Below are positions 2,617 to 61,899 of a stretch of 64,000 bases of DNA, piece after piece; position 1 is the stretch's first letter, and each line of letters opens with the position of its first letter. This stretch comes from Candidatus Shapirobacteria bacterium (GTDB lineage Bacteria > Patescibacteriota > Microgenomatia > UBA12405 > BS750m-G30). The notes beneath the pieces are model-generated. The model saw nothing but the letters and a program-made list of their open reading frames with translations. It was not told where the DNA came from and made no database searches. The position numbers and the translations under genes are program-made. The stretch is from positions 7,272-71,271 of the forward strand of contig JADHWP010000001.1 of NCBI GenBank assembly GCA_016783425.1. The letters run 5' to 3'.

Positions 2617-3933
2617 TTACCGAATCGTAACGCCGTAAAGGTTGGCGGGCAGGCTGGGGTGGAGGGAGGTAAGAATGATTAGCTTATTGCCGTCCGGAGA
2701 GGGGAAAACATACCCGTTTTCAAAAGGACCGGCAAAAACCGTTTGCTTATTGGTGGCATCGGCTTCAACTACCTTGGCTTGATTATCTTCCAGGAAAACC
2801 AGGTGATTATTGGTGCTTAGCCAATAAAGAGAGGTCTGGGTTTGAGCCAGGTACGATTCAAGCAGGTTTTCCTGGTTAGTTATTTTTTCCGGATCCAGAC
2901 CGATTTTTTCCGCTCCAATAATAAAAAAGTTTGTATCCTGCTCTAAATCGTAAACATAGATTCCACCCGACTTAATATTTCTTTCTTCAATCTCGGTAGA
3001 GCGGGCCGGAGGATGAGGCAGAAGTTTTTCCGGAAGGCTCGCTTCCCGGGAAGCCAGGTAAAAAATCTTTTTTTGATGCGGAGAAAAAGTTACCAGTTGG
3101 GCCGATTCACTGGCAATTTGGGCGAGCTCTTTGGGCAGTTTTTCCAAATCTCTTGTTAACTGCTCCTGCTTTTGAGTTTGCCATCCGCTTAAGGTAAAGG
3201 AAAGCTGCAATACTTCGTTTCTAAGTTGATCCGCGGGGGTGAGGCGGTCGGCGGGGAGGCGGTAAACTGAAGAAGGGCTTTCCAGGGGACCAAAAATAGC
3301 CAGTACTTCAGCAGAATCCGGGCTCCAAATCAAAACCGCCTTAGACCAGTCCAGAAAGCTGACCGGGGCTACCAGCTGGTGAGTGTTGCTGCGGAATAGG
3401 TTTAAGCCTCCCTGATCAATCCGGGAAACCCAGAGCCCGTTTTTTATTTCCGCCGAAGACGAAGCGACCGCGTAGGCAATTTTTGCCCCGTCCGGGGAAA
3501 GAGCGGGGTTAATCGCGCCGGTGTTAGTGAGGGTAGTTAAATCCGGAGCGGAGCGGAAAAGGTGGGCATCGGTTTGAAAAACTACCTCTTTTTTAACCAG
3601 CGCCTTTTTTTCCCAGGGCAGATACCCGTCTTTAATTAATTTTAGTTGATATTCACCCGGAGAGAGGGTGATCGTGTCGTCGGTAGCGGTTACCAGCTTA
3701 TCATCCACATAAACCAAGGCTCCTTTGGGCAAAGAAATGGCGGCGAGCAAGCCCGTGGGGAACAAGCCGCCCTTTTTAATATCCGGTCGGTAGCCCCTGA
3801 TAAACAAAGAGACTATGGTAGTTCCGGCTACCACGAAAGCGAGAACGCCAGCGGCAATCATCGCCGGCTTAAACCGCTTAACCTTTTTTCCCAACCCTCT
3901 TCTTTTTAATATCTTTTTAAGTTTTTTGATCAT
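2617..3933 (-). CDS. Membrane-anchored PEGA-domain protein with TolB-like beta-propeller region
   Basis: 438 aa; N-terminal TM helix, PEGA-like motif (GEYQLKLIKDGYLPWEK), repeated propeller-like segments. Confidence 0.55.
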   Translation of the reverse strand: MIKKLKKILKRRGLGKKVKRFKPAMIAAGVLAFVVAGTTIVSLFIRGYRPDIKKGGLFPTGLLAAISLPKGALVYVDDKLVTATDDTITLSPGEYQLKLIKDGYLPWEKKALVKKEVVFQTDAHLFRSAPDLTTLTNTGAINPALSPDGAKIAYAVASSSAEIKNGLWVSRIDQGGLNLFRSNTHQLVAPVSFLDWSKAVLIWSPDSAEVLAIFGPLESPSSVYRLPADRLTPADQLRNEVLQLSFTLSGWQTQKQEQLTRDLEKLPKELAQIASESAQLVTFSPHQKKIFYLASREASLPEKLLPHPPARSTEIEERNIKSGGIYVYDLEQDTNFFIIGAEKIGLDPEKITNQENLLESYLAQTQTSLYWLSTNNHLVFLEDNQAKVVEADATNKQTVFAGPFENGYVFPSPDGNKLIILTSLHPSLPANLYGVTIR

Positions 3934-3985
3934 TTGAAACTTGAGCTTTTATTCTACCATATTTGTTTGAGTTTAGAGTTTAGAT

Positions 3986-4030
3986 TGTCAACCTTAAAGG
4001 TTGAAGATCCAGTAACCTTTAAGGTTGACA
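3986..4030. repeat. Composite REP element: two TGTCAACCTT(T/A)AAGGTTGACA half-copies around a 10-bp insert (agatccagta)
   Basis: Same palindrome family as the copies at 14596, 15369, 19104, 35997 and 38406. Confidence 0.85.
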
Positions 4031-4121
4031 GAGCTGGCGGACTCGGGAGTAATATAATTTCTGGTATAATGATTTTAGAGGAGGAAATATCTTTATTTTA
4101 AGATAATCATAATATATCAAA

Positions 4122-5129
4122 ATGGCTTTAAGCAAGCAGTTGGCGATCGATTTAGGCACGGCCAATTCTTTAGTTTGGGAAATAGGCAAGGGTCTGATTA
4201 TTAATGAGCCGACGGTGGTGGCCGTTACTTTGGAGGAGCGAAAAGTTTTAGCAGTGGGCAGGGAGGCGAAAGAAATGCTGGGGCGGACTCCGGAATATAT
4301 TGAGGTCGCCCGGCCAATGCGGGAGGGAGTAATTGCCGATTATCAGGTAACCGAATCCATGCTGCGGTGGTTTATTCGCCAGACCGGGAGCGGTTTGCTT
4401 AATTTTTTTAAACCTGAAGTAATGGTTTGTGTGCCTACGGGGGTAACCCAGGTCGAGCAAAGAGCGGTTTTAGACGCCACTCTTAGCGCCGGGGCGCGGG
4501 TGGCCTATCTTATTGATTCTCCTTTAGCCGCGGCGATTGGGGCGGGTATTCCCATTAGTAGCGCAGTGGGAAACATGATTGTGGATATTGGCGGGGGCGC
4601 TTGTGAGGCGGCCGTAATTTCTTTAGGGGGAGTGGTCGTTCATAAAAGCGTCAGAGTAGCCGGTAATAAGCTGGATGAGGCGATTATTAATTGGCTTAAA
4701 AAAACCCACAATATGGTGGTTGGGGACCAAACGGCGGAGAAAATAAAAATTGAAATCGGGACGGCCTTGCCCAAAAGCAAAGAAAAGAAAATGAGCGTCA
4801 GGGGGCGAGATTCAGTTAGCGGACTGCCTCGGAAAATAGAGCTTACCTCCACCCAGGTTAACGAAGCGGTCAAAGAACCCCTGGAAGAGATTTTAAGCGC
4901 GGTTCGGGGAGTTTTAGAAAAGACTCCTCCGGAACTGGTAGCGGATATTGTTGACCGGGGGATTATTCTTTCCGGTGGGACGGCCTTATTAGGTAGCCTG
5001 GATAGATATCTTACAAGACAGATTGGGGTTTCTTTCCATGTAGCCCAGGATCCTTTGCTTTGCACCATTAAAGGGACCGCGGCGGCTTTAGAGAATTTAG
5101 AAGATTATAAAAGTTCTTTGAGGTTGTAG
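4122..5129 (+). CDS. mreB: Rod shape-determining protein MreB (actin-like ATPase)
   Basis: 335 aa; N-terminal DLGTANS phosphate-1 motif and MreB-wide conservation. Confidence 0.9.
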   Translation: MALSKQLAIDLGTANSLVWEIGKGLIINEPTVVAVTLEERKVLAVGREAKEMLGRTPEYIEVARPMREGVIADYQVTESMLRWFIRQTGSGLLNFFKPEVMVCVPTGVTQVEQRAVLDATLSAGARVAYLIDSPLAAAIGAGIPISSAVGNMIVDIGGGACEAAVISLGGVVVHKSVRVAGNKLDEAIINWLKKTHNMVVGDQTAEKIKIEIGTALPKSKEKKMSVRGRDSVSGLPRKIELTSTQVNEAVKEPLEEILSAVRGVLEKTPPELVADIVDRGIILSGGTALLGSLDRYLTRQIGVSFHVAQDPLLCTIKGTAAALENLEDYKSSLRL

Positions 5130-13007: not shown

Positions 13008-13040
13008 CCCCGAGGTGAGCCCTGGCTCCTCGGGGTGTGC
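13008..13040 (+). terminator. GC-rich hairpin CACCCCGAGG-loop-CCTCGGGGTG after prs (member of a 3-copy hairpin family)
   Basis: Perfect 10-bp stem; related copies at 25588 and 61813. Confidence 0.5.
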
Positions 13041-14595: not shown

Positions 14596-14616
14596 AATGC
14601 AAATTGTCAACCTTAA
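14596..14616. repeat. REP element (21-bp perfect palindrome TGTCAACCTTAAAGGTTGACA) flanking the RAYT gene; a partial copy (agtcaacct) follows
   Basis: Exact palindrome; partner copy at 15369 on the other side of the transposase gene. Confidence 0.9.
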
Positions 14617-14652
14617 AGGTTGACAAGCTAGTCAACCTCGGGAGAATGCTAA

Positions 14653-15333: not shown

Positions 15334-15368
15334 TTTCTTGTTTATATTTTACCCGAGGTTGCAATAGC

Positions 15369-15389
15369 TGTCAACCTTTAAGGTTGACA
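15369..15389. repeat. REP element (TGTCAACCTTTAAGGTTGACA) flanking the RAYT gene
   Basis: Exact 21-bp palindrome. Confidence 0.9.
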
Positions 15390-15405
15390 GCGGGGCAATG
15401 GCGTG

Positions 15406-15850
15406 TCACCAACTGCCCCCGCCTCCGCCGCCAAACCCTCCGCCGGAAGAACCGCCTCCGCCGCCAAACCCCGATCCGCCCGACCAGGAAGATTTACCCG
15501 ACCATTGGTTTTGAGGGGAAGAAACCATATTAGAGGCGGCTTGGGCGGAAAAATGGTTTAAGTCGTAAGCTAATCTGCTAGTGGTGACTCCGGCAAAGAT
15601 TTTTTCGTCAGCTAAATGCTGATAGAGCTTCTTTTTAAACTCCTCCAAATGAAGATAAAAGTGATTTTTTAAATCAGAAAGGCGTATTTTTTTGATTTCT
15701 AAATAGCCCAAACGTGCTAATTCCACAATTTCCGCCACTACATCTTGAATATCCACTTTTTCGTCGATAATTGTGCCTACTTCGGCGGGAGTTAAATTAT
15801 CAATGGGGCTGTAAACCGAGGGCAGGTGCTCACGGGCAAAAAGTTAATAA
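15406..15850 (-). pseudogene. Possible C-terminal remnant of a DUF2207/YgcG-like membrane protein (Gly-rich tail); frame stays open upstream to 15850 without an ATG
   Basis: LTPAEVGTIIDEKVDIQDVVAEIVELARLGYLEI... then GGGFGGGGG tail, as seen at C-termini of DUF2207 proteins; N-terminal two-thirds missing; directly adjacent to REP/RAYT. Confidence 0.3.
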
Positions 15851-16074: not shown

Positions 16075-16653
16075 TTGTTAATGAAATACCTTGAACTGCG
16101 AAAAGAGATTAGCCAAAATCTTTTTACTATTCTTGATGTTGAAAAAAAGTTTTATTCTGAGAAAAAAGATTCCTTGAGAGTCCAACTTTCTCGCTTTATT
16201 CAAAAAGGCCGGTTAATACAACTTAAGCGGGGACTTTATTGCTTTAACCCTGCCAAACTTGACGAGTTTGTTTTGGCCAACCAGCTTTACCAGCCCTCCT
16301 ATATCAGCCTGGAAACGGCCCTGAACTATTACGGGATAATTCCCGATATTTCCCAGAGACTGACCAGCGTCAGCCCGACGACTACTAAAAAAATCAGCAA
16401 TCAATTTGGGATTTTTCATTATGCCAAAATCAAATCAGTTCTTTTTTGGGGTTATACTAAAAAGAGGCTGGATGATAAAGAAAGTTTTTTTCTTATCGCT
16501 CAAAAGGAAAAATCCCTGCTTGACTTTTTTTATTTGCGGAAAATTAAAAAAGTGAAAGATTTGCGCCTGAATTTGGCGGATTTTGATTTTGATCGCTATC
16601 AGCGGTATGTTAAAAATTTTCCCGCCTGGGTTCAAGTGATTAAATTGGCATGA
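16075..16653 (+). CDS. Type IV TA system antitoxin, AbiEi family (transcriptional regulator)
   Basis: 192 aa (alternative ATG at 16081); AbiEi_4-like N-terminal wHTH; immediately precedes and overlaps an AbiEii gene. Confidence 0.7.
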   Translation: MLMKYLELRKEISQNLFTILDVEKKFYSEKKDSLRVQLSRFIQKGRLIQLKRGLYCFNPAKLDEFVLANQLYQPSYISLETALNYYGIIPDISQRLTSVSPTTTKKISNQFGIFHYAKIKSVLFWGYTKKRLDDKESFFLIAQKEKSLLDFFYLRKIKKVKDLRLNLADFDFDRYQRYVKNFPAWVQVIKLA

Positions 16654-17444
16654 ATAACCTAATAACTGATTTTGACCAGATTATTAAATTTGCCCAAGAC
16701 TATCAACTGCCCTTAAACAAAAAGCGGGCGATTTTAAGAGAGTATTTACAGGTTAAAATTTTAGACATTCTCTATCGCCAAAAAAGCTCATCCCAATTGA
16801 TTTTTGTGGGTGGCACTTGTTTGCGGTTAACCAGAAACTTAGATCGCTTCTCAGAAGATCTTGATTTTGATTTAGGTGAAATCAGCTTTAAACAGGCAGA
16901 TTATTTAATAGAACGGACTTTTGACCAGCTTAAAAAAGAAAACATTGTTCTTGATTTTTATCGCAACCAGACCAAAAAGAGAATTTATTGGGAGTTTCGT
17001 TTTAAAAATCTGCTTTTTGAATTAAAAATTGGCCGTGATCTAAGGGAAAAACTAATGATTAAGTTTGATTTTGAGAAAATTTGGCGAAAACACCAAAAAC
17101 AAACAATCTTGCTTAACCGCTATGGCTTTTTGGTGAACATAGTAACCACTCCTTTAAATCAGTTACTGGTGCAAAAATTGACGGCCTATTTAGGGCGATC
17201 CCAAACTCAACCTCGGGATATTTATGATATTGTCTGGCTCATTTCCCAAGGAGCCAAAGTTGACAAGCAGTTTGTTAAAGATAACAAACTGTCTTTGAAT
17301 TTAGTTTCCAGGGCGGTTAAAAAGTTTAACCGTGAAGAAAAAAAGCTAAAGCAATTTAAGCGCCGCCTTCAACCATTCTTGGTAAACGAAAAATACCTTG
17401 ATAAATTAAACCTCTTTCCTCAACTGCTCGAGCAGTTAGGTTAA
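16650..17444 (+). CDS. Type IV TA system toxin, AbiEii/AbiGii nucleotidyltransferase family (DUF1814)
   Basis: 264 aa; FVGGTCLRL...RFSEDLDFD nucleotidyltransferase motif. Confidence 0.75.
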   Translation: MNNLITDFDQIIKFAQDYQLPLNKKRAILREYLQVKILDILYRQKSSSQLIFVGGTCLRLTRNLDRFSEDLDFDLGEISFKQADYLIERTFDQLKKENIVLDFYRNQTKKRIYWEFRFKNLLFELKIGRDLREKLMIKFDFEKIWRKHQKQTILLNRYGFLVNIVTTPLNQLLVQKLTAYLGRSQTQPRDIYDIVWLISQGAKVDKQFVKDNKLSLNLVSRAVKKFNREEKKLKQFKRRLQPFLVNEKYLDKLNLFPQLLEQLG

Positions 17445-18034: not shown

Positions 18035-18517
18035 TTATTTTAACTCTACTTTCGCGCCGGCATCCGTAAGTTTCTTTTGCGCTTCCTGGGCGTCTTCTTT
18101 TTTAGCGTCTACTAAAACTTCAGCGGGTAGTTTTTCAGTCATGTCTTTGGCTTCCTTTAAACCTAGTTCAGGTTTAATTAGCCTTAAGGCTTTAATGACA
18201 TTTATTTTGTTTGCCCCGGCTTCAGTTAGGACGACGGTAAATTGAGTTTTTTCTTCAACCGGAGCAGCTGCATCAGCGCCATTGCCTCCGTTTGCGCTAG
18301 CAGCAGGAGCAGCGGCGATAGCTTGAACTCCAAATTTTTCTTCCAAGCCTTTGACCAGCTCGGATAGTTCTAAAACGGAAAGGCCAGCGACCTGATTCAG
18401 GATTTTGGTTAGTTTCGGATCTAAATTAACTTTAACTTTTTCTTCTTTTTTTTCTTTGCTTTTAGCTTTTAGCTTTTCTCCGCCAGCTGGCGGATTAGCT
18501 TGTTTGTCATTACTCAT
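18035..18517 (-). CDS. rplL: 50S ribosomal protein L7/L12 with N-terminal extension containing an in-frame palindromic insertion
   Basis: 160 aa; conserved [19 protein letters not shown] and C-terminal domain; N-terminal about 30 aa extra, including [10 protein letters not shown] encoded by a 23-bp segment identical to one in nrdH. Confidence 0.85.
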
Positions 18518-19038
18518 TAGTTTTCACCCCCTTTGCTTTCAGTTATTACTTTTAAGGTTAAGATAAATTTTTGCTGATGGTAATTTAAAGCGTAGGCTAA
18601 TCTAAACAGGGGATTGCTTAAGCCCCCAATAAACTGTGCCAGTAGAGTTTCTTTATTGGGCAAAGCGACTAATCTTTCCAACTCGGTTAAAGAAAGTAAT
18701 TTTCCCTGGAAAAGGCCTAGTTTAAATTCCGGTTTTTCAAACCTTTTTTTTGTTTCTGCCACTTTTTTTAAAGGGGCAATTTCGTCTTCATAGGCGACCA
18801 CCAGAGCAGTGGGGCCGGTTAGAGTTTCCGGAAGATCAATGCCTAAAGTTTTTAGGGCAAGCATAAGTAAGGTATTTTTCGCCACGAACATTAAGCCGCC
18901 TTGTTTTTTTATTTGAAAGCGAAGCTCCCGAACCTGCTCCGCAGTTAAGCCTTGGTAGTCAATTAGAGCCGCGCTTTTACCGCCTTCTATTAAGGCTTTT
19001 AAGTTTTCTACTTCGTAAATTTTGCTTTGTTTAACCAT
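18517..19038 (-). CDS. rplJ: 50S ribosomal protein L10
   Basis: Start taken at [10 protein letters not shown] (ATG at 19038); the longer table ORF runs through the REP element and is rejected. Confidence 0.85.
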
Positions 19039-19103
19039 TACTGCCAAGCTCCAAATTACAAATAACAAGTATTCCAAATCACCGCTTCTGGCGGGATCCT
19101 GCT

Positions 19104-19148
19104 TGTCAACCTTAAAGGTTGATGACCCGATAACCTTTAAGGTTGACA
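19104..19148. repeat. Composite REP element (half-copies around a 10-bp insert tgacccgata) in the rplJ leader region
   Basis: Exact reverse complement of the composite copy at 38406. Confidence 0.85.
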
Positions 19149-19152
19149 GCAC

Positions 19153-19180
19153 AAAAAAGCCTCGTTTCCGAGGCTTTTTT
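19153..19180. terminator. Bidirectional-looking hairpin aaaaaagcctcg-tttc-cgaggctttttt
   Basis: 6-bp GC-rich stem flanked by A- and T-tracts. Confidence 0.5.
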
Positions 19181-24986: not shown

Positions 24987-25614
24987 GTCCAGACGGGAAG
25001 CTTTCGGAAAGTTAAAAGAATTTTCTAAGGGGTATTTGGCTGGTGGAACCGCCTTGGCTTTGCAAATTAATCACCGGCTTTCGTTTGATTTTGATCTTTT
25101 TTTCACCCATCCTTTGAGAAAATCACTAATTAGGAAGTGCCTCCAGCTTTTTGAGGAAGAATCACGAATAATTAGACAAACAGGTGACCAAATTACTATT
25201 ATTACTCCACTGGGTATTAAATTAGACTTTATTCATTATTGGCACAAGCCTATTAGGCCGTTGGTTAAAACTGGAGAGTTGCCTTTGGCCTCAATTTTGG
25301 ATATTGCAGCTGATAAGGCGGCCTGTGTTGGCCGGCGGGCAGTTTGGCGGGATTATGTTGATATTTTTTTCTTACTAAAAAAACAACTCGTTTCTTTAAA
25401 GCAACTGATTAAATTAGCTCAAGAAAAATTTGGGGGAGAGTTTAATGAGCTTCTTTTTTTGGAACAGTTAATATTTTTTAAGGATTTGCCGGTTGCTAAA
25501 ACTGAATTTCTCCAGGAAAAGTATTCTTCAATAGAAATTAAAAAGTATTTGAAAAAAGAGGTTAAGCAATATTTAAAGGAGATTAGTTTTCTCCACCCCC
25601 GAGGTGGGCCTTGA
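24955..25614 (+). CDS. AbiEii-like nucleotidyltransferase-family protein (second copy)
   Basis: 219 aa; YLAGGTALALQINHRLSFDFDLF motif. Confidence 0.6.
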   Translation: MSAIYLEILDKSRREAFGKLKEFSKGYLAGGTALALQINHRLSFDFDLFFTHPLRKSLIRKCLQLFEEESRIIRQTGDQITIITPLGIKLDFIHYWHKPIRPLVKTGELPLASILDIAADKAACVGRRAVWRDYVDIFFLLKKQLVSLKQLIKLAQEKFGGEFNELLFLEQLIFFKDLPVAKTEFLQEKYSSIEIKKYLKKEVKQYLKEISFLHPRGGP

Positions 25615-25625
25615 CTCCTGGGGGG
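25588..25625 (+). terminator. GC-rich hairpin CACCCCCCGAGG-loop-CCTGGGGGGTG overlapping the gene end
   Basis: Member of the CACCCCGAGG/CCTCGGGGTG hairpin family. Confidence 0.45.
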
Positions 25626-25641
25626 TGATATTATTTTTAAT

Positions 25642-35244: not shown

Positions 35245-36543
35245 GCGGGCTGACTTTTTAAAGCCCAGTTTTTTGAGTATTTTGGTTGTGGTTTGGGGAT
35301 ATTGGCAAATATCTTTAAAAATTATTTTAAGATTTCTTTTTTGACCCCGATGGAGAATAAACCGATAAATTGTTTTTCCGTGCTTTTGTAAGTAGCGCTT
35401 GTGTTTTAAAAAGGTGCCGATAGAGGCCTGCTTTTCTTTCTGGTTGATCATTTTCAAGCCAATATGACCGAGGGGGTGATTATTTTTCGTAATTAGCCAG
35501 TAGGCAAAAGCCGGGTTGTAAATTAAATTATTGAGCCAGGCTTTGATTTGGTCTTTGCTTTTGGGGGTAAAGGTAAAAAGATTCTGTCTTGTTTGGGGTT
35601 TTTTAAATTCTCGTAAATGGAAACGCAAAAGTTTGGAGTCGGGAGAAAAAGGAATAAATTCCAATCCCTGATATTTTATTCGCTTGGTGTTTGGCTTGCT
35701 GATATTAAAAATAAAACCCTCTTTTTTAATTGTTTTTAAACAGGAAGAAAAGCCAAGATTGGTTAATTTTTTTCGTAATCGAGAGATATACTGGTCCAGA
35801 GCATAGTCGGAATATTCATAATTTTCGCCCCAAAGGTGGTGAGCTAGTTTTTCCCGATTGATTATTTTATCCTGATTTTTTGCAAAAATTTCCAGTCCTT
35901 TTTGTTGCTGGAGTGAAAGATGAGAGGTAACTTTTTTAAGATTAACCTCTTTTTCTTGGCCAGGGAAACTTAATTGCAAGTAGTTTTTTAATGCTCTGTC
36001 AACCTTTAAGGTTGACAGAGTGTGATTGGTTTTTTTAATAATTCCGGTTTTAAGCAGATAATCAAGTTCATTTTTTTGGTAAAAAAAAGATTGTAAGTTT
36101 TTTTGGGAGATTTGCTGCAAAATTAGCTGCTGATTTTCAGAAAGGAGGCTAAAAAACAAATTGGGCTTAGACTGGCGGCCAGGATCAGGAAGATAAATTA
36201 GCCGTTTAAGAAAATAGCTCTCTTTAAGCTGGTTATAAAGCCTTTCTTGTTTTAGATTTTGGTCGAAAACCAGAATGATTCTGGCTTGCTTAAAGTTTTT
36301 TTCAAAAGCGCGCTCCAACCTAATTAGAAGTGGCAGGGAGGCTAAATAAAAATTGGGAAAGCTGATAATGCTTAATCGAGAAAAATTAATTTTGTTTAGA
36401 CTCATTTTGCTTTCGATCGTGAACAGTTTGGCCCCGGGCCAAATTTTTCTAAGAGAGGAAATTGGAAACAAGGGAGCGGTAATTAGGGTTTGAAAATGAT
36501 ATTTGGCCAAATTAATTTTGGCCCTCCCAGCCCAGTTGTCCAT
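35191..36543 (-). CDS. Putative regulator: ATPase-like N-region, central OmpR/PhoB-type winged helix, C-terminal GNAT-like domain
   Basis: 450 aa; LEIFAKNQDKIINREKLAHHLWGENYEYSDYALDQYISRLRKKL matches trans_reg_C and is paralogous to the 8716-9687 protein; carries a REP palindrome in frame (LSTLKVD); divergent from repeat copy 1. Confidence 0.6.
   Translation of the reverse strand: MDNWAGRAKINLAKYHFQTLITAPLFPISSLRKIWPGAKLFTIESKMSLNKINFSRLSIISFPNFYLASLPLLIRLERAFEKNFKQARIILVFDQNLKQERLYNQLKESYFLKRLIYLPDPGRQSKPNLFFSLLSENQQLILQQISQKNLQSFFYQKNELDYLLKTGIIKKTNHTLSTLKVDRALKNYLQLSFPGQEKEVNLKKVTSHLSLQQQKGLEIFAKNQDKIINREKLAHHLWGENYEYSDYALDQYISRLRKKLTNLGFSSCLKTIKKEGFIFNISKPNTKRIKYQGLEFIPFSPDSKLLRFHLREFKKPQTRQNLFTFTPKSKDQIKAWLNNLIYNPAFAYWLITKNNHPLGHIGLKMINQKEKQASIGTFLKHKRYLQKHGKTIYRFILHRGQKRNLKIIFKDICQYPQTTTKILKKLGFKKSARSSHFFFLNNPLQNGQAR
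35997..36017. repeat. REP palindrome (TGTCAACCTTTAAGGTTGACA) lying in frame inside the 35191-36543 CDS
   Basis: Exact 21-bp palindrome (7 codons) identical to the intergenic copies. Confidence 0.85.
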
Positions 36544-36559
36544 AGTATTATATTATATC

Positions 36560-36628
36560 CAACTTGTCAGGATTTTGCAAGAGAGGTGTCAAGAAAAATA
36601 AGTCTCTGGACAATATACTATCAGTTAC
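36560..36628 (+). promoter_or_regulatory. Copy 1 of the shared upstream element (TGTCAGGATTTTGCAAGAGAGGTGTCAAGAAAAATAA) with putative promoter TTGCAA-17-ATAAGT
   Basis: Near-identical to copies at 38454 and 40526; 11-bp-phased TGTCAGG/TGCAAGA/TGTCAAG direct repeats. Confidence 0.6.
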
Positions 36629-38392: not shown

Positions 38393-38405
38393 TTATCTTA
38401 TTTGT

Positions 38406-38450
38406 TGTCAACCTTAAAGGTTATCGGGTCATCAACCTTTAAGGTTGACA
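38406..38450. repeat. Composite REP element (insert tatcgggtca), reverse complement of the 19104 copy
   Basis: Exact match in opposite orientation. Confidence 0.85.
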
Positions 38451-38453
38451 AGT

Positions 38454-38527
38454 ATTTGCCCTGTCAGGATTTTGCAAGAGAGGTGTCAAGAAAAATAAAA
38501 AGAGGTGGTTTACACTATAGGGCAAAT
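38454..38527 (+). promoter_or_regulatory. Copy 2 of the shared upstream element with conserved 5' UTR (AAGAGGTGGTTTACACTATA); inverted repeat ATTTGCCCT/AGGGCAAAT brackets it and overlaps the start codon
   Basis: 66 bp identical to copy 3; the IR arms could form a hairpin sequestering the ATG. Confidence 0.6.
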
Positions 38528-40506: not shown

Positions 40507-40525
40507 TCTAGCATATAGTTTGTCT

Positions 40526-40598
40526 ATTTGCCCTGTCAGGATTTTGCAAGAGAGGTGTCAAGAAAAATAAAAAGAGGTGGTTTACACTATAAGATAAG
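40526..40598 (+). promoter_or_regulatory. Copy 3 of the shared upstream element plus conserved 5' UTR
   Basis: Identical to copy 2 over about 66 bp. Confidence 0.6.
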
Positions 40599-42769: not shown

Positions 42770-44644
42770 ATGAGCAAGAAAAAAATTGATCCGACTGATT
42801 TTATTGAAATTGGCCGGCTTAACGGTGGCGGCCGCAAGCTTATCGTGGATTTGGATGAAATTGGGGAAATTATTGTTTCCAAAGGGAGCAAGGACGATGC
42901 CAATAAAATCAATACCCCCGAGGGTACTTCTTTTTCCTTGTCCGAATATTTAAAAAAAGAGTACGCTTTACACAAGGTTTTTTCAAAAGATGTAGCCGAA
43001 GCTCATCGCAAGGGAGACATTAAACTGCAAAAACTCCAGTTTATTGACCGACCCTATTGTTCCGGTCAGGGGTTGGAGTATATTAAAAAATTTGGCTTAA
43101 CTAAGTACGCTTCTTTTGCGGCGGTCAAGCCGGCCGGCCACATTGACGCTTTAATTGACCACATGATGCGCATGACCATGGCCTTAAGGGCCCATTTTGG
43201 CGGGGCGGTTGGCTGGGATGCGCTTAATATGTATATGGCCCCTTATCTTGGCGGCATGGGGGATCGGGAGATAAGACAAATTGCCCAAAGAATTATTTAC
43301 CAGTTCAACCAAACCGTTGGCCCGCACGGCGGCCAGCCGGTTTTTTCGGATATTAATCTTTATTGGGAGATTCCCGATCATTTTGCCAGGGTGCCGGCGA
43401 TTGGGCCAAGGGGGGAGTTTACCGGCCGAATGTACAAAGATTATGAAAAAGAAGCCCAGGCTTTAGTTTGGCAGCTTTTGAATATTTATAAAAGAGGAGA
43501 CGCTAAAGGCAAGCCTTTTTTCTGGCCCAAACCCAATGTTCATATCACTACCAGGTTTTGGCAAACTCCGGGACACGAGGAATTCTTAGAGCATGTTTGC
43601 GGCGTGGCCGCTAAAATGGGCAATCCCTATTTTATTTTTGACCGCGGTTCAGTGGCTAAAATTTCCGAATGCTGCCGCTTGCAGTTTGAGCTGTCGAAAG
43701 ACGATTTAAAAGAAGCCAAAGAGCCCTGGAAAATGCGCTACGCCGCTTGTCCTTATCTACCCGTAAACTTGCCCCGGGTAGCTTACGAGGCTAATCATGA
43801 TGAAAAAAAGTTTTTCCAAATTTTAGGCGCGCGCCTGGAGCTTTTGACCAAGGCTCATCTTCAAAAAAGCCGATTTTTAAAAAAGCTTTTGGAAATGGGG
43901 CCAACCGGGCCCTTGGGCATGCTGACCTTAACAAGCAACGGGGACAAAGAGCCGTATTTACGATTTGACAAAATGCCCTATATGAATGCGGTTGGCGGGC
44001 TTTCCGATGCGGTTAAGTTTCATCTTGGCAAGGCCCTGCATGAATCAGACGAGGCCTTGAAATTCGGTTTAAGAGTAACTGCTTTTATGAAGAAGAAAAC
44101 AGAAGAAGAAGGTAAAAAGGCGGGTTTAAAAATTCTTCTTGACCAGTCTCCGGCGGAATCAACCATGTATCGGTTTGCCAAAATGGATTTGGCCCAGTTT
44201 CCCAAACAAGCCAGGCAAATTGTTCATGGTGATCTTAAAAGCGGGCAAGTGTATTACACTAACTCTTCTCAAATTGATGTGGATGCATCTTTGGATGTTT
44301 TTGAACGGATTGAACTGGAGGGCCGATTTCATCCTTTAATGCAAGGCGGGGCCTTAACCCATATTTGGCTGGGCGAAAACTTGCCTTCGGCTAAATCTTT
44401 GGCCAGTTTAGTTAAAAAAGTCTTTTTTAAAACCCAGAATACTCAAGTCGCTTTTTCTCCGGAATTTACTTTGTGTTCTGATTGCGAGCAGACCAGCCGG
44501 GGCAAAAGAGAGAGTTGTCCTTTTTGCGGTAGCAAAAAAGTGGACTGGGTCACCCGGATTACCGGCTATTATACTTTTGTGAAGCAGTGGAATAAGGGTA
44601 AACTAGGGGAGTTAAAGGATCGGAAGAAAAACAGGATTAAATAA
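42770..44644 (+). CDS. nrdD: Anaerobic ribonucleoside-triphosphate reductase (class III), paralog 1, no ATP-cone
   Basis: 624 aa; active-site ISECCRL, C-terminal Zn-ribbon CSDCEQ...CPFCG and glycyl-radical motif RITGYY. Confidence 0.85.
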   Translation: MSKKKIDPTDFIEIGRLNGGGRKLIVDLDEIGEIIVSKGSKDDANKINTPEGTSFSLSEYLKKEYALHKVFSKDVAEAHRKGDIKLQKLQFIDRPYCSGQGLEYIKKFGLTKYASFAAVKPAGHIDALIDHMMRMTMALRAHFGGAVGWDALNMYMAPYLGGMGDREIRQIAQRIIYQFNQTVGPHGGQPVFSDINLYWEIPDHFARVPAIGPRGEFTGRMYKDYEKEAQALVWQLLNIYKRGDAKGKPFFWPKPNVHITTRFWQTPGHEEFLEHVCGVAAKMGNPYFIFDRGSVAKISECCRLQFELSKDDLKEAKEPWKMRYAACPYLPVNLPRVAYEANHDEKKFFQILGARLELLTKAHLQKSRFLKKLLEMGPTGPLGMLTLTSNGDKEPYLRFDKMPYMNAVGGLSDAVKFHLGKALHESDEALKFGLRVTAFMKKKTEEEGKKAGLKILLDQSPAESTMYRFAKMDLAQFPKQARQIVHGDLKSGQVYYTNSSQIDVDASLDVFERIELEGRFHPLMQGGALTHIWLGENLPSAKSLASLVKKVFFKTQNTQVAFSPEFTLCSDCEQTSRGKRESCPFCGSKKVDWVTRITGYYTFVKQWNKGKLGELKDRKKNRIK

Positions 44645-46809
44645 TGCCCAGCGAAATCAGCAAATACAATAATGGCAATGGCAATGGTAATGGCTTAACG
44701 ACCAAGCAGGCCAAATACCTAGAGGGCGCCAAAAAACATGGGGCAACGGATACAATGTTCTTTGTTTCTACTTCAGACGAGGCTTTAAAAGAGTGGGATG
44801 TAACCCAAATTGCCAAGCGCTTGATTATTGAAACGGGTATGGGAGAAAAGTTGGCAATGAGGATTGCCAAGGTGGTAGAGGAGAAGATTTTGGCGGCCAA
44901 GCTAAAACATGTTTCTACTAACCTTATTCGGGAATTAACCAATGCCGAGCTTCTTTTCCGGGGATTGGAAAAATATTATGACAAGCATGTGCGCTTAGGA
45001 GTGCCCATTTATGATGTTCACCAGATGCTCACCGAACAAAACAGAATTAATGCCAATGTGCCTCATAATACCGAAGCCACTAATTTGGCTTTAGCCCGGA
45101 ATATTAAAAAAGAGTATGCCTTGCGCCGGGTTTTTTCTAAAGACGTCGCTCAAGCTCATGCCAAGGGTGATCTTCACCTTCACGATTTGGATTTTGTGGA
45201 TCGGCCCTATTGTTGTGGGCAGTCAATTGAGTATGTAAAGAAATATGGCCTGGATATTGCCTCCAGTTTGGCGGTAGCCAAGCCAGCCAAATATGCCACT
45301 ACTTTGGTATTGCAGATAATTAAATTGGCTTCGATGCTCCAGGTTCATTTTGCGGGGGCGATTGGCTTTGATGCCGTTAATCTTTTTCTGGCTCCTTATT
45401 TAACTGGTTTTGGCAAAAAAGAATTAAAGCAATTGGCTCAAACTCTTCTTTTTGAATTTAATATGCAAAATATAGCCCGGGGCGGACAGGCGATTTTTTC
45501 GGACATTAATCTTTATTGGGAAGTGCCTGATCATTTTGCCGATACCCCGGCAATTGGGCCGGGGGGTAAATATACGGGTAAAAAATATCAGGATTATCAA
45601 AAAGAATCGCAAGAATTTGTTAAAGCCATTTTTGAGGTGTATTTAGAGGGAGACGGAGCGGGACGGCCTTTTTTCTGGCCTAAGCCTAATTTACATATCA
45701 CCGAGAAATTTTGGCAAACTCCGGGTCATCAAGGGTTTTTGCATCTGGCTTCTAAAGTAGCGGCCATTCGGGGCAATACTTATTTTGTTTTAGACCGGGG
45801 AGGCACAGCCCGAATCTCCGAATGCTGCCGACTGGCCTTTAATCTTAAAAAATCCGACCTTGAAGATGCTAAAAAGCCCTGGAAAATGCGTTACAGCGCG
45901 ATGCAGAATGTTTCTTTGAATTTGCCCCGTATGGCTTACAAAGCCAAGGGAAGGACTGATAAGTTATTTGAGGAAATTGAGCGGGGGATGGAGCTGTTGG
46001 CCAAGGCTCACCAACAAAAGAGGCGGTTTATCAAAAGACTTTTAGATATGGGCCTGCAAGGGCCCTTGGCCGCGCTGACTACCCGCCAGCTGGATGATAA
46101 TGAATCTTACTACCGCTTTGATAAGGCCAAGTTTTTAGTTGGTGTTTTTGGGGTTAACGAAACGGTTGAGTATTGCCTGGGAAAGCAGATGCACGAAAGC
46201 GATCAAGCGCTTAAACTGGGCCTAAAGATTGTTTCCCAAATGAAGAAAAAAGCGGAAATTTTAAGTAAGCGGGATAAAATGGAGTATGTTTTGGAGCAAA
46301 CTCCAGCGGAAGGGTTAACTTACCGTTTTGCTAAATTAGATAAGCGCTTTTATCCCAAAGAGGCCAAAAAAGTGATTAAGGGTAATTGGGAGGAAGATTA
46401 TATTTACTACACCAATTCCACCCAGCTTAATGTGTCCGAACCTATTGACCCTATTGAAAGAGTAACTAAAGAAGGTCTTTTTCATCCTCTAATTGACGCT
46501 GGAGCAATCAGCCATATTTGGCTCGGGGAGCAAAATCCGGATCCAAAGGCGATTGCCAGTTTTGTGAAAAAAACCTTTGATCACACCCAAAACGGCTTAA
46601 TTGCTTTTTCCCCCGAGTTTACGATTTGTGATTCTTGTATGGCAACCAGCCGGGGACTAAAAGATAACTGCCCCAAATGCGGTTCTGAAGAGGTAGACGG
46701 AGTTACTCGAGTGACTGGTTTTTATTCTCGCGTTAGCCGTTGGAATAAAGGAAAAATAGGCGAGCTAAAAGATCGGTATCGAAACGCGGGAAAGTTTCGT
46801 GATTCGTAA
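44644..46809 (+). CDS. nrdD: Anaerobic ribonucleoside-triphosphate reductase (class III), paralog 2, with N-terminal ATP-cone-like domain and NGNGNGNG repeat
   Basis: 721 aa; same motifs (ISECCRL; CDSCM...CPKCG; RVTGFY) plus an about 100-aa N-terminal ATP-cone-like region; tandem aatggc repeats at 44680-44703. Confidence 0.85.
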   Translation: MPSEISKYNNGNGNGNGLTTKQAKYLEGAKKHGATDTMFFVSTSDEALKEWDVTQIAKRLIIETGMGEKLAMRIAKVVEEKILAAKLKHVSTNLIRELTNAELLFRGLEKYYDKHVRLGVPIYDVHQMLTEQNRINANVPHNTEATNLALARNIKKEYALRRVFSKDVAQAHAKGDLHLHDLDFVDRPYCCGQSIEYVKKYGLDIASSLAVAKPAKYATTLVLQIIKLASMLQVHFAGAIGFDAVNLFLAPYLTGFGKKELKQLAQTLLFEFNMQNIARGGQAIFSDINLYWEVPDHFADTPAIGPGGKYTGKKYQDYQKESQEFVKAIFEVYLEGDGAGRPFFWPKPNLHITEKFWQTPGHQGFLHLASKVAAIRGNTYFVLDRGGTARISECCRLAFNLKKSDLEDAKKPWKMRYSAMQNVSLNLPRMAYKAKGRTDKLFEEIERGMELLAKAHQQKRRFIKRLLDMGLQGPLAALTTRQLDDNESYYRFDKAKFLVGVFGVNETVEYCLGKQMHESDQALKLGLKIVSQMKKKAEILSKRDKMEYVLEQTPAEGLTYRFAKLDKRFYPKEAKKVIKGNWEEDYIYYTNSTQLNVSEPIDPIERVTKEGLFHPLIDAGAISHIWLGEQNPDPKAIASFVKKTFDHTQNGLIAFSPEFTICDSCMATSRGLKDNCPKCGSEEVDGVTRVTGFYSRVSRWNKGKIGELKDRYRNAGKFRDS

Positions 46810-46848
46810 TTCGTTATTGGTTAATCGTAATTCGTTATTGGTTAATTG
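46803..46848 (+). repeat. Tandem direct repeat (cgtaattcgttattggttaat x2) at the 5' border of the four-helix-bundle gene
   Basis: Two exact 21-bp units; related inverted units at 47245-47300 and inside nrdG at about 48185-48215. Confidence 0.7.
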
Positions 46849-46858
46849 TGATTTATTG

Positions 46859-47236
46859 ATGAGAGACAAAATTAATAATTTTAGCGATTTAGATGCTTGG
46901 AAAATAAATCACAGGCTAGTTTTGGATGTTTACAAAACTACTAAAGATTTTCCAAAAGATGAGCGCTATGGCATTATTAATCAGTTAAGACGGGCGGCAA
47001 GTTCGATTACAGCCAATGTTGCCGAAGGTTGGGGGAGGTATCATTACGCTGATCGAATAAGGTTTTATTATAATGCTCGCGGATCTAGTTGTGAGGTTCA
47101 AAATTTCCTTGTTTTAAGTAGAGACTTGGGGTATTTAAGTTCAATAGATTATCAAAAATTGTACCTGCTGGCGACAAAAGGTCTTAAGATTATTAATGGT
47201 TTAATTCGATCTGTGGAAAAACTTAAAATTAAATAA
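46859..47236 (+). CDS. Four-helix-bundle protein (23S rRNA IVS-protein-like family)
   Basis: Start at MRDKINNF; ...RRAASSITANVAEGWGRY...ARGSSCEVQ signature of the family. Confidence 0.7.
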   Translation: MRDKINNFSDLDAWKINHRLVLDVYKTTKDFPKDERYGIINQLRRAASSITANVAEGWGRYHYADRIRFYYNARGSSCEVQNFLVLSRDLGYLSSIDYQKLYLLATKGLKIINGLIRSVEKLKIK

Positions 47237-47244
47237 ATTGCGGT

Positions 47245-47300
47245 TAATGTTTGACGAGTAGCGTTTAGCGAATAACGTTTAACGATTAGCGAATAACGGA
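47245..47300 (+). repeat. Repeat cluster (tagcgaataacg x2) at the 3' border of the four-helix-bundle gene, inverted relative to the 5' repeats
   Basis: Shares cgttattcg-type units with 46803-46848. Confidence 0.6.
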
Positions 47301-47308
47301 ATAAGAAA

Positions 47309-47596
47309 ATGACTCTAAAACTGTTTACTAAAAAAAATTGTCCCAAATGCCCTGCGGCTAAGGCGCTCATTTGCGAGCTTAAAGCTCAAAAGTTAAAACT
47401 CAATCCGCCAGCTGGCGGAGAAAAATTAAAAGTTGAAAATTACAATGTTGAAGACATTGACGGTATGGCCGAGGCCGCTTTTTATCAGGTAATGGCTACT
47501 CCTACTATTTTAATCTGTGATGATAGGGGTAAGGAGTTGAGAGGTTGGCGGGGGGAAGTTCCATCCCGGAAAGAAATTTTAGCCAAAGTCAAGTGA
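47309..47596 (+). CDS. nrdH: NrdH-like glutaredoxin (CPKC redox motif) with in-frame [10 protein letters not shown] insertion
   Basis: 95 aa; thioredoxin fold with CxxC; 23-bp insert at 47402-47424 identical to that in rplL. Confidence 0.7.
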   Translation: MTLKLFTKKNCPKCPAAKALICELKAQKLKLNPPAGGEKLKVENYNVEDIDGMAEAAFYQVMATPTILICDDRGKELRGWRGEVPSRKEILAKVK

Positions 47597-57999: not shown

Positions 58000-58625
58000 T
58001 TGTCATGCTAAATCTGTTTCAGCACTTTTTAGTGAGATTATTTCAAAAGTCATTCTGATCCCGACGTTACGTCGGGAGAAGAATCTAGCGAAGCCAGGTG
58101 CAACACTGTACCTGGCGAAGCGCAAACACGCTCCCCCGACTAACGTCGGGATTGCTAGATCCCTCCCTCGCCTGCTGGCGGGTCGGGATGACAACCGGGC
58201 CGTCATTCTGACAAATTAACAACCGTCATGCTGAATTCCTGCCCGCAATCGCTAAGCTCAAGCTTTGGCAGGCGGGGTATTTCAGCATCGATCCTGAAAC
58301 AAGTTCAGGATGACGCTAGGCGAGTTCAGAGCCTGCCCCGAATTCATTTCGGGGATGACACTTGGCGTGGGCAGTTCAGATGTCAAAAAAGGGTGACAAT
58401 TGAGACGTTAAGCTACAATTCTAACTGGCGGTGTGCTTTCGAAAAAATTCGAACTGATTTCGCCCAAAATTTGTAGGGCGGGCGGAATTTCCCCCAGATC
58501 CCCCTTCCGCCCGCCGCACCTGTCCGCCTCTGGCGGAGAAGCGACCCTTTCGGATTGGACGATTTCAAGTTTTTCGTTCCGCTATAAGCGGAACTCTGGG
58601 CTTCGCCCAGTTTGGCGGCAAATTC
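58000..58625. other. ORF-free, GC-rich region densely packed with short and long-range inverted repeats (candidate large structured RNA or nest of palindromic elements)
   Basis: More than 10 hairpins; contains IR partner 58238-58277. Confidence 0.4.
58238..58277. repeat. Inverted-repeat partner of 56396-56434
   Basis: Reverse complement matches 38/39. Confidence 0.8.
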
Positions 58626-61742: not shown

Positions 61743-61812
61743 GAGTTTAGTTAAAAGTTAAAAGTGAAAAGTTAATAGTTAAAAAATTCACTCTGGGAAT
61801 ATTTTATCATAA

Positions 61813-61847
61813 AAATACCCCCGAGGAGCCAAAGCGCACCTCGGGGG
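61813..61847. other. GC-rich hairpin ACCCCCGAGG-loop-CCTCGGGGGTG (third member of the hairpin family)
   Basis: 10-bp perfect stem, 13-nt loop. Confidence 0.45.
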
Positions 61848-61899
61848 TGTTGAGGCCGGGATTGTTATTTACCAAGACAAAAGGGTAAAATATCTTTAA

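Follow-up and report, generated by a model that had tools for sequence, protein, structure and literature searches.

In-frame copies of a dispersed 16-bp palindrome in unrelated genes of a CPR bacterium

Two unrelated genes within a 64-kb stretch of DNA from a Candidatus Shapirobacteria genome (termed the window) carry the same 23-mer, AATCCGCCAGCTGGCGGAGAAAA, on the coding strand of both. One gene encodes ribosomal protein L7/L12 and the other a thioredoxin-like protein, which raises the question of how identical nucleotides came to lie in frame in both. An earlier note on this DNA had proposed a mobile mini-palindrome that is tolerated in frame, rather than convergent protein evolution.

The shared segment contains TCCGCCAGCTGGCGGA, a perfect 16-bp palindrome that as a single strand has a G+C-rich 6-bp stem and a 4-nt centre. 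The copy in rplL lies at 18479-18494 on the minus strand, where it reads (N)PPAGG(E), and an exact match lies at 47404-47419 on the plus strand in the thioredoxin-like gene. These are the only two exact copies in the window, and no additional copy with two or fewer mismatches was found there. Chance predicts 0.01 copies in the window, and none of 100 dinucleotide-preserving shuffles yielded two or more. Exact matching and shuffling thus bear out the earlier observation of an identical 23-bp segment, palindrome included, in frame in two unrelated genes. The likeness between the rplL and thioredoxin-gene segments reaches 37 nt at 89%, and both copies translate to the same 10-residue peptide.

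Folding calculations predict a stable hairpin at each site. Specifically, the rplL copy has a free energy of -15.2 kcal/mol as RNA (z -3.7) and -7.8 kcal/mol as DNA, and the copy in the thioredoxin-like gene has -11.0 kcal/mol as RNA (z -3.5). Across sites the hairpin ranges from -6.5 to -7.8 kcal/mol as DNA and from -11 to -15 kcal/mol as RNA (z near -3.6), whereas orthologous sites that lack the palindrome are unstructured. [quoted passage not shown] Replication-strand bias was rejected as its rationale, since GC skew is uniform in the window and the two copies are oppositely oriented relative to replication.

The rplL gene (18035-18517, minus strand; PF16320 and PF00542) encodes a protein of 160 amino acids in which the insert forms residues 8-18. 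This is a Lys/Glu-rich N-terminal tail whose length differs among relatives and which precedes the dimerisation domain, for which the Pfam match starts at residue 36. The copy is, as had been described, within an N-terminal extension, and it lies ahead of the Pfam domains. The ATG start codon at 18517 is preceded by a Shine-Dalgarno sequence (GGGGGTG), overlaps the rplJ stop codon and is kept in the orthologue, and no alternative in-frame start was found 3′ of the insert. Given this conserved start and the lack of a later one, the insert is, judging by sequence, translated.

Comparison with the closest insert-free orthologue (P0047), which is ~80% identical and shares the rplJ-rplL-AbiEii synteny, reveals that the rplL segment is an insertion. 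The DNA alignment of the two loci (window versus L121) contains a single clean 33-nt gap, and protein alignment agrees in placing the extra segment at 18469-18501 (minus strand). The segment has the form A-AGCTAA + 16-mer + GAA + AAGCTAA; that is, it adds the palindrome together with two extra copies of a local heptamer, or 11 residues in all. The filled allele reads AAAC[AAGCTAA]-16-mer-GAA-[AAGCTAA][AAGCTAA]AAGC and the empty allele AAAC[AAACTAA]AAGC, so the boundaries of the segment are ambiguous inside the repeated heptamer. All five members of the 90% protein cluster that includes the window gene are 160 amino acids long, and no insert-free allele was found among them. At the same rplL site, another relative (P0049) has a different hairpin, itself decayed, with the native sequence AAGCTAAAAGC directly repeated on either side.

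The second host (47309-47596, plus strand; 95 amino acids, CPKC at residues 11-14) resides in an nrdD-nrdD-PF05635-trx-nrdG cluster, with two nrdD paralogues upstream, directly between the PF05635 gene and a radical-SAM NrdG-like gene. Its earlier label, nrdH, may stand as an informal functional name, but Pfam assigns the protein to Thioredoxin_3. Orthologues are mostly 86 amino acids long and lack about nine residues between helix alpha-1 and strand beta-2. The ~27 extra nucleotides (nine residues, approximately NPPAGGEKL) are placed by alignment and codon view at 47402-47428 on the plus strand, with approximate junctions, as the comparison set contains no close empty allele. In an AlphaFold2 model (m184901c6816a; mean pLDDT 88.5), residues 32-40 form the only low-confidence loop, which joins helix 14-31 and strand 41-46. 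The model agrees with the predicted location in the loop after the CPKC helix and indicates that the insert occupies a disordered, tolerated position.

Extra residues in both proteins proved to be lineage-specific, in that the P0047 rplL gene lacks the 33 nt and most thioredoxins lack the nine residues. In the orthologues the segment is either absent or replaced by other GC-rich elements, rather than present as the same residues encoded by divergent DNA. For example, the same thioredoxin loop in other CPR lineages hosts a decayed CCTGCCTGCCGGCAGGCAGG (P0005, P0020) or an element of the ...CGCTCAGGACAGG... type (P0003, P0009). Because the same loops host other GC-rich elements in other CPR lineages, the accumulation of such elements inside coding sequences is a general CPR phenomenon. 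The suggestion that this genome accumulates palindromic elements in its genes thus needs broadening, and the 16-mer is confined neither to this genome nor to its lineage, being found across phyla. One item of support for the suggestion probably falls away: a REP copy near rplJ (19103-19149) that had been counted as intragenic lies upstream of the probable rplJ start, the Pfam L10 match begins at ~19020, and the copy is probably outside the coding sequence.

Are the residues or the nucleotides the conserved entity? Among 105 unique CPR contexts of the 23-mer, 40 read NPPAGGE(K/N) in long open reading frames, seven read IRQLAEK, two read SASWRRK and ~12 are on the reverse strand. Forty-four of the 105 are outside long open reading frames, and such frames run through about half (~58%) of the unique contexts of CPR type. 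Hosts confirmed by Pfam include a second, independent L7/L12 (Staskawiczbacteria), SecF, NifU/IscU, CTP synthase (PyrG), RmlD, Pth, UvrA, PGK, topoisomerase I (TopA) and DNA polymerase I (PolA). PNPase, UvrC, LepA, GAPDH, TsaE-like and MiaA-like proteins, among others, were recognised by homology. For about 20 additional host proteins, homologues show a gap of three to six residues precisely where the element lies. Every coding copy examined is in frame and free of stops, so that translational bypass or frameshifting is an unnecessary proposal.

Because hundreds of exact copies occupy all three frames and intergenic DNA, convergent protein evolution is excluded as the source of the shared segment, as the earlier note had argued. 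A broader proposal, that NPPAGGEK is a functional peptide motif acquired by convergence or by exchange of protein modules, draws on two observations. The PPAGG frame exceeds what flank phase predicts: the codon phase of GAAAA in window genes predicts frames in the ratio 56:28:16, and the observed ratio is 82:14:4 (40:7:2). Also, the peptide lies near the N-terminus in two independent rplL genes. The frame bias arises in part from flank context, however, and the remainder probably reflects tolerance of the PPAGG peptide. Furthermore, the nucleotides are identical with zero synonymous variation, the host proteins are unrelated and the inserts reside in disordered loops. The IRQLAEK, SASWRRK, reverse-strand and very frequent intergenic copies effectively refute the peptide proposal, which we regard as very improbable.

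What stays constant among copies is the 16-mer alone. The earlier note took the 23-mer to be the inserted unit, and its identity between the two genes is confirmed. However, the flanking AA and GAAAA are native target sequence at the PNPase site described below, and the GAA flank is largely ascertainment from the search sequence. Specifically, 26 unascertained copies, which is most of them, lack GAA, and the flanks of 267 exact copies vary (AA, GA, TA, TC and others).

Copies of this unit are numerous. The 19-mer consisting of the core plus GAA is present in more than 120 stretches among GTDB species representatives (one genome per species), versus an estimated ~4 expected, and the exact 23-mer has more than 120 matches in JGI metagenomes. 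In 1.68 Mb of fetched sequence there are 32 unascertained exact 16-mers, a density of roughly 20 per Mb, and 33 copies of the inner 14-mer, as opposed to four copies of the next commonest G+C-rich perfect 14-nt palindrome. Unascertained copies with one, two and three mismatches number 14, 16 and 24, respectively (1.4 expected for three). Mismatches cluster at two places, the four central nucleotides, where they are transitions, and the outermost pair. They leave the stem arms conserved, and several variants carry compensatory arm changes that keep the stem. The 16-mer is thus an insertion relative to orthologues, is present in many copies and is far commoner in its carriers than other perfect palindromes.

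Among the matches listed, CPR carriers belong to the Microgenomates, Parcubacteria and Saccharibacteria. Further carriers are found in many families of Bacteroidota, including a Maribacter isolate (L051), in Cloacimonadota, among them a single-cell genome (L106), in Marinimicrobia and Lentisphaeria, and in MAGs of low GC content that carry a Gammaproteobacteria or Bdellovibrionales label. A few matches at high GC, in the RQLAE frame of genes such as that for GroEL, reflect ordinary coding sequence. Coincidence, or an error of assembly or sequencing, might be considered on the grounds that carriers are mostly MAGs. Against this stand the very low chance expectation in the window, the position of copies inside long contigs with frames kept, the many assemblers and projects involved, the single-cell and isolate carriers, and the fixation of the insert in all five rplL cluster members. 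We consider an origin by chance or error negligible in probability.

Outside CPR, the 16-mer forms the tip of hairpin repeats that are specific to lineages. A module of the ‘tgtcat’ family has the form GTCATTGC-GA-[core]-GAA-GCAATC, a spacer, and then GATTGCTTC-[other tip]-TCGCAATGAC. A Lentimicrobiaceae repeat of ~200 nt has, at the homologous hairpin, CTCC-[core]-GAGG in some copies and a plain CTCCCCCAAAAGGGGGAGG in others. Outer Watson-Crick stems of at least 5 bp flank 32 of 127 copies, versus ~6 when flanks are re-paired. Interpretation of the internal loop, ‘GA...GAA’, as a hammerhead or a K-turn was rejected, since core positions are unlike those of the hammerhead and the GAA flank is largely a search artefact.

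Collectively, the insertion relative to orthologues, the multi-copy spread and the mixture of frames and intergenic sites support the proposal of a mobile mini-palindrome tolerated in frame. The reading towards which we lean, with modest confidence, is that the 16-mer is a dispersed, sequence-specific palindrome, selfish or neutral, whose coding copies are in-frame, loop-located survivors. Such an element would spread by insertion inside genomes, and between phyla over evolutionary time. Insertion may occur anywhere suitable, which the contexts suggest to be A-rich AA...GAA sites in CPR and hairpin tips elsewhere. Selection would then retain those coding copies whose added length is a multiple of three and whose position is a surface loop or a terminal tail, and Pro-Pro-Ala-Gly-Gly, the commonest reading, would serve as a flexible loop peptide.

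How insertion might proceed can be judged from the junctions. In rplL the palindrome is flanked on the coding (minus) strand by a 10-nt direct repeat, with the 5′ copy AACAAGCTAA at 18495-18504 matching the 3′ copy GAAAAGCTAA at 18469-18478 at 8 of 10 positions. In the thioredoxin gene (plus strand) a decayed left copy, TAAAACTCAA, at 47394-47403 matches at 7 of 10 positions the right copy, GAAAAATTAA, at 47420-47429, which is also native beta-2 coding sequence (KLK). Direct repeats of 10 nt that abut the 16-mer with at least 8 of 10 matches are found in 18 contexts versus 1.3 expected. The register is exact, in that a repeat length of 9 nt gives one context and 11 nt gives none. This repeat is present in ~8-20% of contexts, hardly any of them outside CPR. 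It resembles a target-site duplication and suggests that a trans-acting enzyme may carry out a staggered-cut, transposition-like step. On such a scheme the 16-mer could be viewed as two 8-bp terminal inverted repeats placed back to back, the smallest conceivable MITE. Ends of 8 bp are shorter than usual transposase-binding sites.

A target-site duplication of this kind would add 26 nt. In contrast, the net gains are +33 nt in rplL, ~+27 nt in the thioredoxin gene and, most commonly in other hosts, +12 nt, so that one cut-and-paste rule does not fit them all. In PNPase genes the empty site reads ATT ATT AA ATAT GAAAAG and the filled site ATT ATT AA [16-mer] GAAAAG, with four native bases replaced. 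One host shows no length change (L197 versus L152). Another pair (L220 versus L242) differs by one A in a run beside the element, which is consequently read in different frames.

These junctions bear on a different route, in which a selfish palindrome has no dedicated enzyme and a break or stalled fork within an A-rich stretch is repaired with a short patch taken from another copy through AA/GAAAA microhomology on either side, leaving junctions that vary. The self-complementary core would favour template switching and escape mismatch repair, and selection would keep multiples of three. Variable gains (+12, +27 and +33) fit this route, as does the replacement of a few native bases in most cases, with +12 nt commonest and one instance of zero change. 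Core-adjacent flanks that are alike among CPR copies yet native at PNPase are likewise consistent with it. The same holds for the exchange of the hairpin tip alone elsewhere (in the ‘tgtcat’ family and in the Lentimicrobiaceae repeat, some copies of which have the core and others not), for the lack of a linked gene within ~4 kb of 120 copies, and for compensatory arm changes, which would match intrastrand template correction. However, the sharp 10-nt register is unexpected from microhomology of variable length, and patches of 16-30 nt are shorter than is usual for homologous recombination. Moreover, patch repair gives no account of the dominance of one sequence over other hairpins, nor of its identity across phyla. 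On balance we find this route rather unlikely.

The element also recurs at orthologous sites. The identical 23-mer is present at the same codon in four PNPase, three UvrA and three HlyD-like genes of different lineages, and third-codon-position identity in the PNPase and UvrA flanks is only 0.3-0.5, which indicates saturation. An insert-free PNPase (L255) is 0.75-0.76 identical in amino acids to each filled gene, and the filled genes are 0.68-0.78 identical among themselves, one close pair excepted. No decayed remnants were found at the PNPase site in 93 homologues. A protein search with the PNPase segment returned no insert-bearing homologue, but as it returned mostly fragments it says little about insert frequency. 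A single old neutral insertion cannot account for the recurrence in PNPase and UvrA; what is called for is either several gains at the same site or conservation of the nucleotides together with a clean loss.

Nucleotide-level conservation would be expected of a host-functional cis-element, either the site of a dimeric protein or a hairpin in mRNA or single-stranded DNA with a role in stability, pausing or replication. The precedent for a protein site is parS, a perfect 16-bp palindrome that has the same sequence across phyla, is present in up to tens of copies per genome and is tolerated in coding regions. Several findings agree with a host function: the element is 100% identical at orthologous PNPase and UvrA sites amid saturated flanks, exact copies outnumber each decayed class, the arms are conserved while the centre varies, the unascertained density is moderate, the same sequence is found in many phyla, and the outer stems of other phyla pair more often than chance predicts. 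The 16-mer differs from parS, however, in that its sequence is unrelated, it arises by insertion and it is patchy among close relatives, with rplL P0047 and PNPase L255 lacking it and none of the 93 PNPase homologues retaining a remnant. Binding sites normally arise by point mutation and not by the addition of codons to essential genes. In addition, the hosts are unrelated housekeeping genes with no shared theme, the window copies are oppositely oriented to replication, there is no Rfam match, and no associated protein gene lies within ~4 kb. A host function for the 16-mer thus appears improbable.

Searches for a partner or parent were carried out on several fronts. At gathering score, Rfam 15 gave no family at the element, whether in the window or at 18 loci, its hits lying elsewhere and being limited to tRNA, tmRNA and TPP. 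Among the genes within ~4 kb of 120 copies no protein family is over-represented, and a transposase was not seen among them; a GIY-YIG family lies near the element at three loci only. The PF05635 (Avd-like, ‘23S IVS protein’) gene, a neighbour of the thioredoxin gene both in the window and at a second locus (L123), was rejected as a partner, since this family occurs in six of 241 sources and never adjoins the element. No parent insertion sequence with split half-site termini enclosing a transposase was found in 1.7 Mb, and a phage origin was rejected on the basis of only three matches in IMG/VR. The half-site GGCGGA corresponds to the EciI recognition sequence; an EciI-like restriction role was rejected because GGCGGA is not avoided (59 in the window versus 25.8 expected). 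The motif CAGCTG is also enriched there (18 versus 8.4 expected).

Several points count against the selfish or neutral palindrome that we favour. They include the very small size of the 16-mer and of its 8-bp ends, the lack of one rule for the net gains and the scarcity of the 10-nt repeat. In addition, no transposase, parent or linked gene was found within the stretches searched, identity at PNPase and UvrA amid saturated flanks is not obtainable from a neutral selfish element inherited by descent, and exact identity across phyla is likewise adverse. A further possibility is that the 16-mer is acted on in trans by a system that is shared horizontally and has no earlier description. Its agent might be an insertion enzyme that requires only the two adjoining 8-bp ends and cuts with a 10-bp stagger, or else a conserved protein that binds the hairpin or the palindrome. 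The system would keep the sequence invariant across CPR, Bacteroidota, Cloacimonadota and other phyla and place it repeatedly at the same essential-gene sites. We put this forward tentatively, as possible rather than probable.

Literature searches by exact sequence and by keyword found no prior description of the sequence or of such a CPR element. In-frame palindromic repeats of the REP, MITE and RPE kinds are already known, and the 16-mer behaves like them yet does not qualify as a member of any. The nearest counterparts are the Rickettsia palindromic elements (RPEs), which are ~100-150 bp long, are confined to Rickettsia and add 30-50 residues (Ogata et al. 2000, reviewed in PMC2229807). Shared with these are the presence of palindromic repeats in frame in housekeeping genes of a small AT-rich genome, translation at tolerated surface positions, the existence of intergenic copies and the lack of a known transposase. 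In-frame insertion at tolerated positions, which typifies RPEs, was found in rplL, Trx, PNPase, UvrA, TopA, PolA, Pth, PGK, SecF, IscU and PyrG. In contrast to RPEs, the palindrome is only 16 bp long, adds 4-11 residues and is identical across several phyla.

REPs of the GTAG/CGTC super-families have been reported many times inside replication and repair genes (PMC3733652). They too are short G+C-rich hairpins that sometimes lie in open reading frames, and the 16-mer hosts include UvrA, UvrC, PolA and TopA. REPs also often form inverted pairs in larger structures, to which the two-hairpin ‘tgtcat’ modules may be compared. Their genomes carry a RAYT (Y1 HUH transposase) gene, which REPs typically flank. 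However, REPs are imperfect, 20-40 bp long, mostly extragenic and high in copy number, whereas the 16-mer is perfect, shorter and less dense, and about half of its CPR contexts are intragenic. No GTAG/CGTC tag adjoins the core among 267 exact copies, and no RAYT gene was seen within ~4 kb of 120 copies.

Among bacteria, MITEs (Correia/NEMIS, ERIC, RUP) measure 50-500 bp, contain internal sequence and have a fixed duplication, such as TA, as well as a parent insertion sequence that can be recognised (PMC2229807, PMC10969869). [quoted passage not shown] Its inverted repeats are trivially 8 + 8 bp with nothing between them, and the 10-nt direct repeat that might represent a target duplication of fixed length is present in a minority of contexts only (the 18 versus 1.3 expected), with gains that differ from 16 + 10. 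Lack of internal sequence, variable gains, absence of a detected parent and a size below 50-500 bp set the 16-mer apart from MITEs.

G+C-rich palindromes that invade AT-rich genomes and occupy protein genes in frame are known also as GC clusters in yeast mitochondria (PMC8811140) and as coding palindromes in Nematomorpha (PMC6649704). These are organellar, lineage-specific in sequence and longer. Within CPR, TIGR-Tas systems encode tigRNA units with two spacers and box C/D motifs, in or beside tas genes (bioRxiv 10.64898/2026.09.09.750476). They resemble the 16-mer as structured palindromic elements in frame in disordered loops of CPR proteins, but the latter is a bare hairpin scattered across housekeeping genes. 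Assignment to a TIGR-Tas stem-loop array was rejected on the basis of this different architecture.

For the annotation of CPR genomes, the 16-mer accounts for a set of puzzling ‘PPAGG’ loop insertions and for spurious small open reading frames in MAGs, and it may serve as a marker of recent insertions and of DNA exchange among co-resident phyla. Its invariance across phyla and at saturated orthologous sites is the aspect likely to surprise specialists, and poses the question of what holds 16 bases identical where neighbouring synonymous sites are saturated. We know of no mobile element as small as 16 bp, the sizes known to us being far larger. If the palindrome is truly mobile, the minimum known size of a mobile DNA element would fall to 16 bp. 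Should a trans-acting system act on it, no smaller DNA element would be known that is mobile or actively maintained, and the palindrome would be a recurrent natural source of loop insertions of 4-11 residues in core proteins. True mobility would also mean that essential genes of reduced CPR genomes, among them those for L7/L12, PNPase, UvrA, Pol I, Topo I, SecF and IscU, have been remodelled repeatedly by one DNA module.

Among loci from other genomes and metagenomes that were used for comparison, several record changes in the DNA at or beside the 16-bp palindrome. The L159 and L162 loci are identical to L230 through the palindrome and its 10-nt repeat, and diverge completely a few bases downstream. 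The palindrome in this comparison is the location of a synteny breakpoint. Three other near-identical loci (L220, L242 and L070), which encode the C-terminal region of a membrane protein, exhibit a single-A difference in the A-run directly 5′ of the palindrome. As a consequence of this one nucleotide, the palindrome is read as NPPAGGEK in one of the loci and as IRQLAEK in the others, and the downstream ends of the ORFs differ. In these loci the reading frame beside the palindrome can be seen in flux. In addition, two palindrome-derived segments occur within one protein tail or loop at L011 (approximately 4615-4684; GNPPAGGGN...HPPAGGEE) and at L203 (around the match at 936-958 on the minus strand), which suggests repeated hits or local duplication.

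The two genes that carry the palindrome in the window have neighbors of several kinds. Upstream of the Thioredoxin_3-family gene, two tandem paralogues of nrdD (anaerobic ribonucleotide reductase) span approximately 42.5-46.8 kb, the second being a 721-aa ORF at 44644-46809. Repeat comparison within the window revealed that the paralogues share approximately 72-74% DNA identity at an offset of 2153 nt, with repeat blocks at 43328-43468/45481-45621, 43660-43746/45813-45899 and 44318-44376/46471-46529. In the region 46799-47300, between nrdD and the thioredoxin gene, lies an inserted gene of family PF05635, annotated as ‘23S rRNA intervening sequence protein’, an Avd-like four-helix bundle. Heptamer-periodic sequence is present on both sides of this gene: NSLLVNRNSLLVN at the 5′ end of its ORF, and cgaataa/cgtttaa/cgattag/cgaataa heptamers downstream (approximately 47262-47298). 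At L123, a locus with an orthologous thioredoxin gene, a PF05635 gene resides on the opposite side of that gene. The rplL gene of the window is adjoined by an AbiEi-like/AbiEii (PF08843) toxin-antitoxin pair (16075-17444), and the insert-free relative (L121) likewise has an AbiEii gene at this position (2680-3453).

Repeat comparison within the window also identified a further family of palindromic repeats, (T)TGTCAACCTTAAAGGTTGACA(A), with copies at 3985-4031, 14604-14650, 15368-15401, 19103-19160, 35996-36029 and 38405-38451. Its units are frequently paired, with two per 47-55-nt module, and the repeat contains the -35-like hexamer TTGACA. The earlier note had spoken of a REP copy inside a coding sequence. 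However, the L10 Pfam match of rplJ starts near 19020, and the copy at 19103-19149 is located upstream of the probable rplJ start, so it probably belongs to the rplJ leader rather than to the coding region.

The same comparison yielded a 67-nt direct repeat, of which two copies are 100% identical with approximately 2 kb between them and a third is 73% identical (36556-36622, 38453-38519 and 40525-40591). Other G+C-rich hairpin families (CCCCGAGG...CCTCGGGG) are present at 13008-13035, 25594-25634 and 61809-61849, and a 39-nt inverted pair (97%; 56396-56434/58238-58276) encloses 1.8 kb and is adjoined by a tRNA gene. From where they lie with respect to the inspected ORFs and tRNAs, these hairpins and the inverted pair seem to be intergenic. 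The hexamer GGCGGA is in twofold excess in the window (59 copies versus 25.8 predicted by shuffles) and forms clusters with 15-18-nt spacing at 15424-15480 and 58481-58537; Gly-Gly-rich repeats or other short repeats may account for this excess.

Finally, at least five contigs of one Lentimicrobiaceae MAG (L026, L029, L045, L103 and L116) carry a conserved repeat of approximately 200 nt with several hairpins, where the 16-mer is present at some hairpin tips and absent at others. An Rfam search of L026 returned no match, and this element may represent a family of structured repeats or non-coding RNAs that has not been described before.
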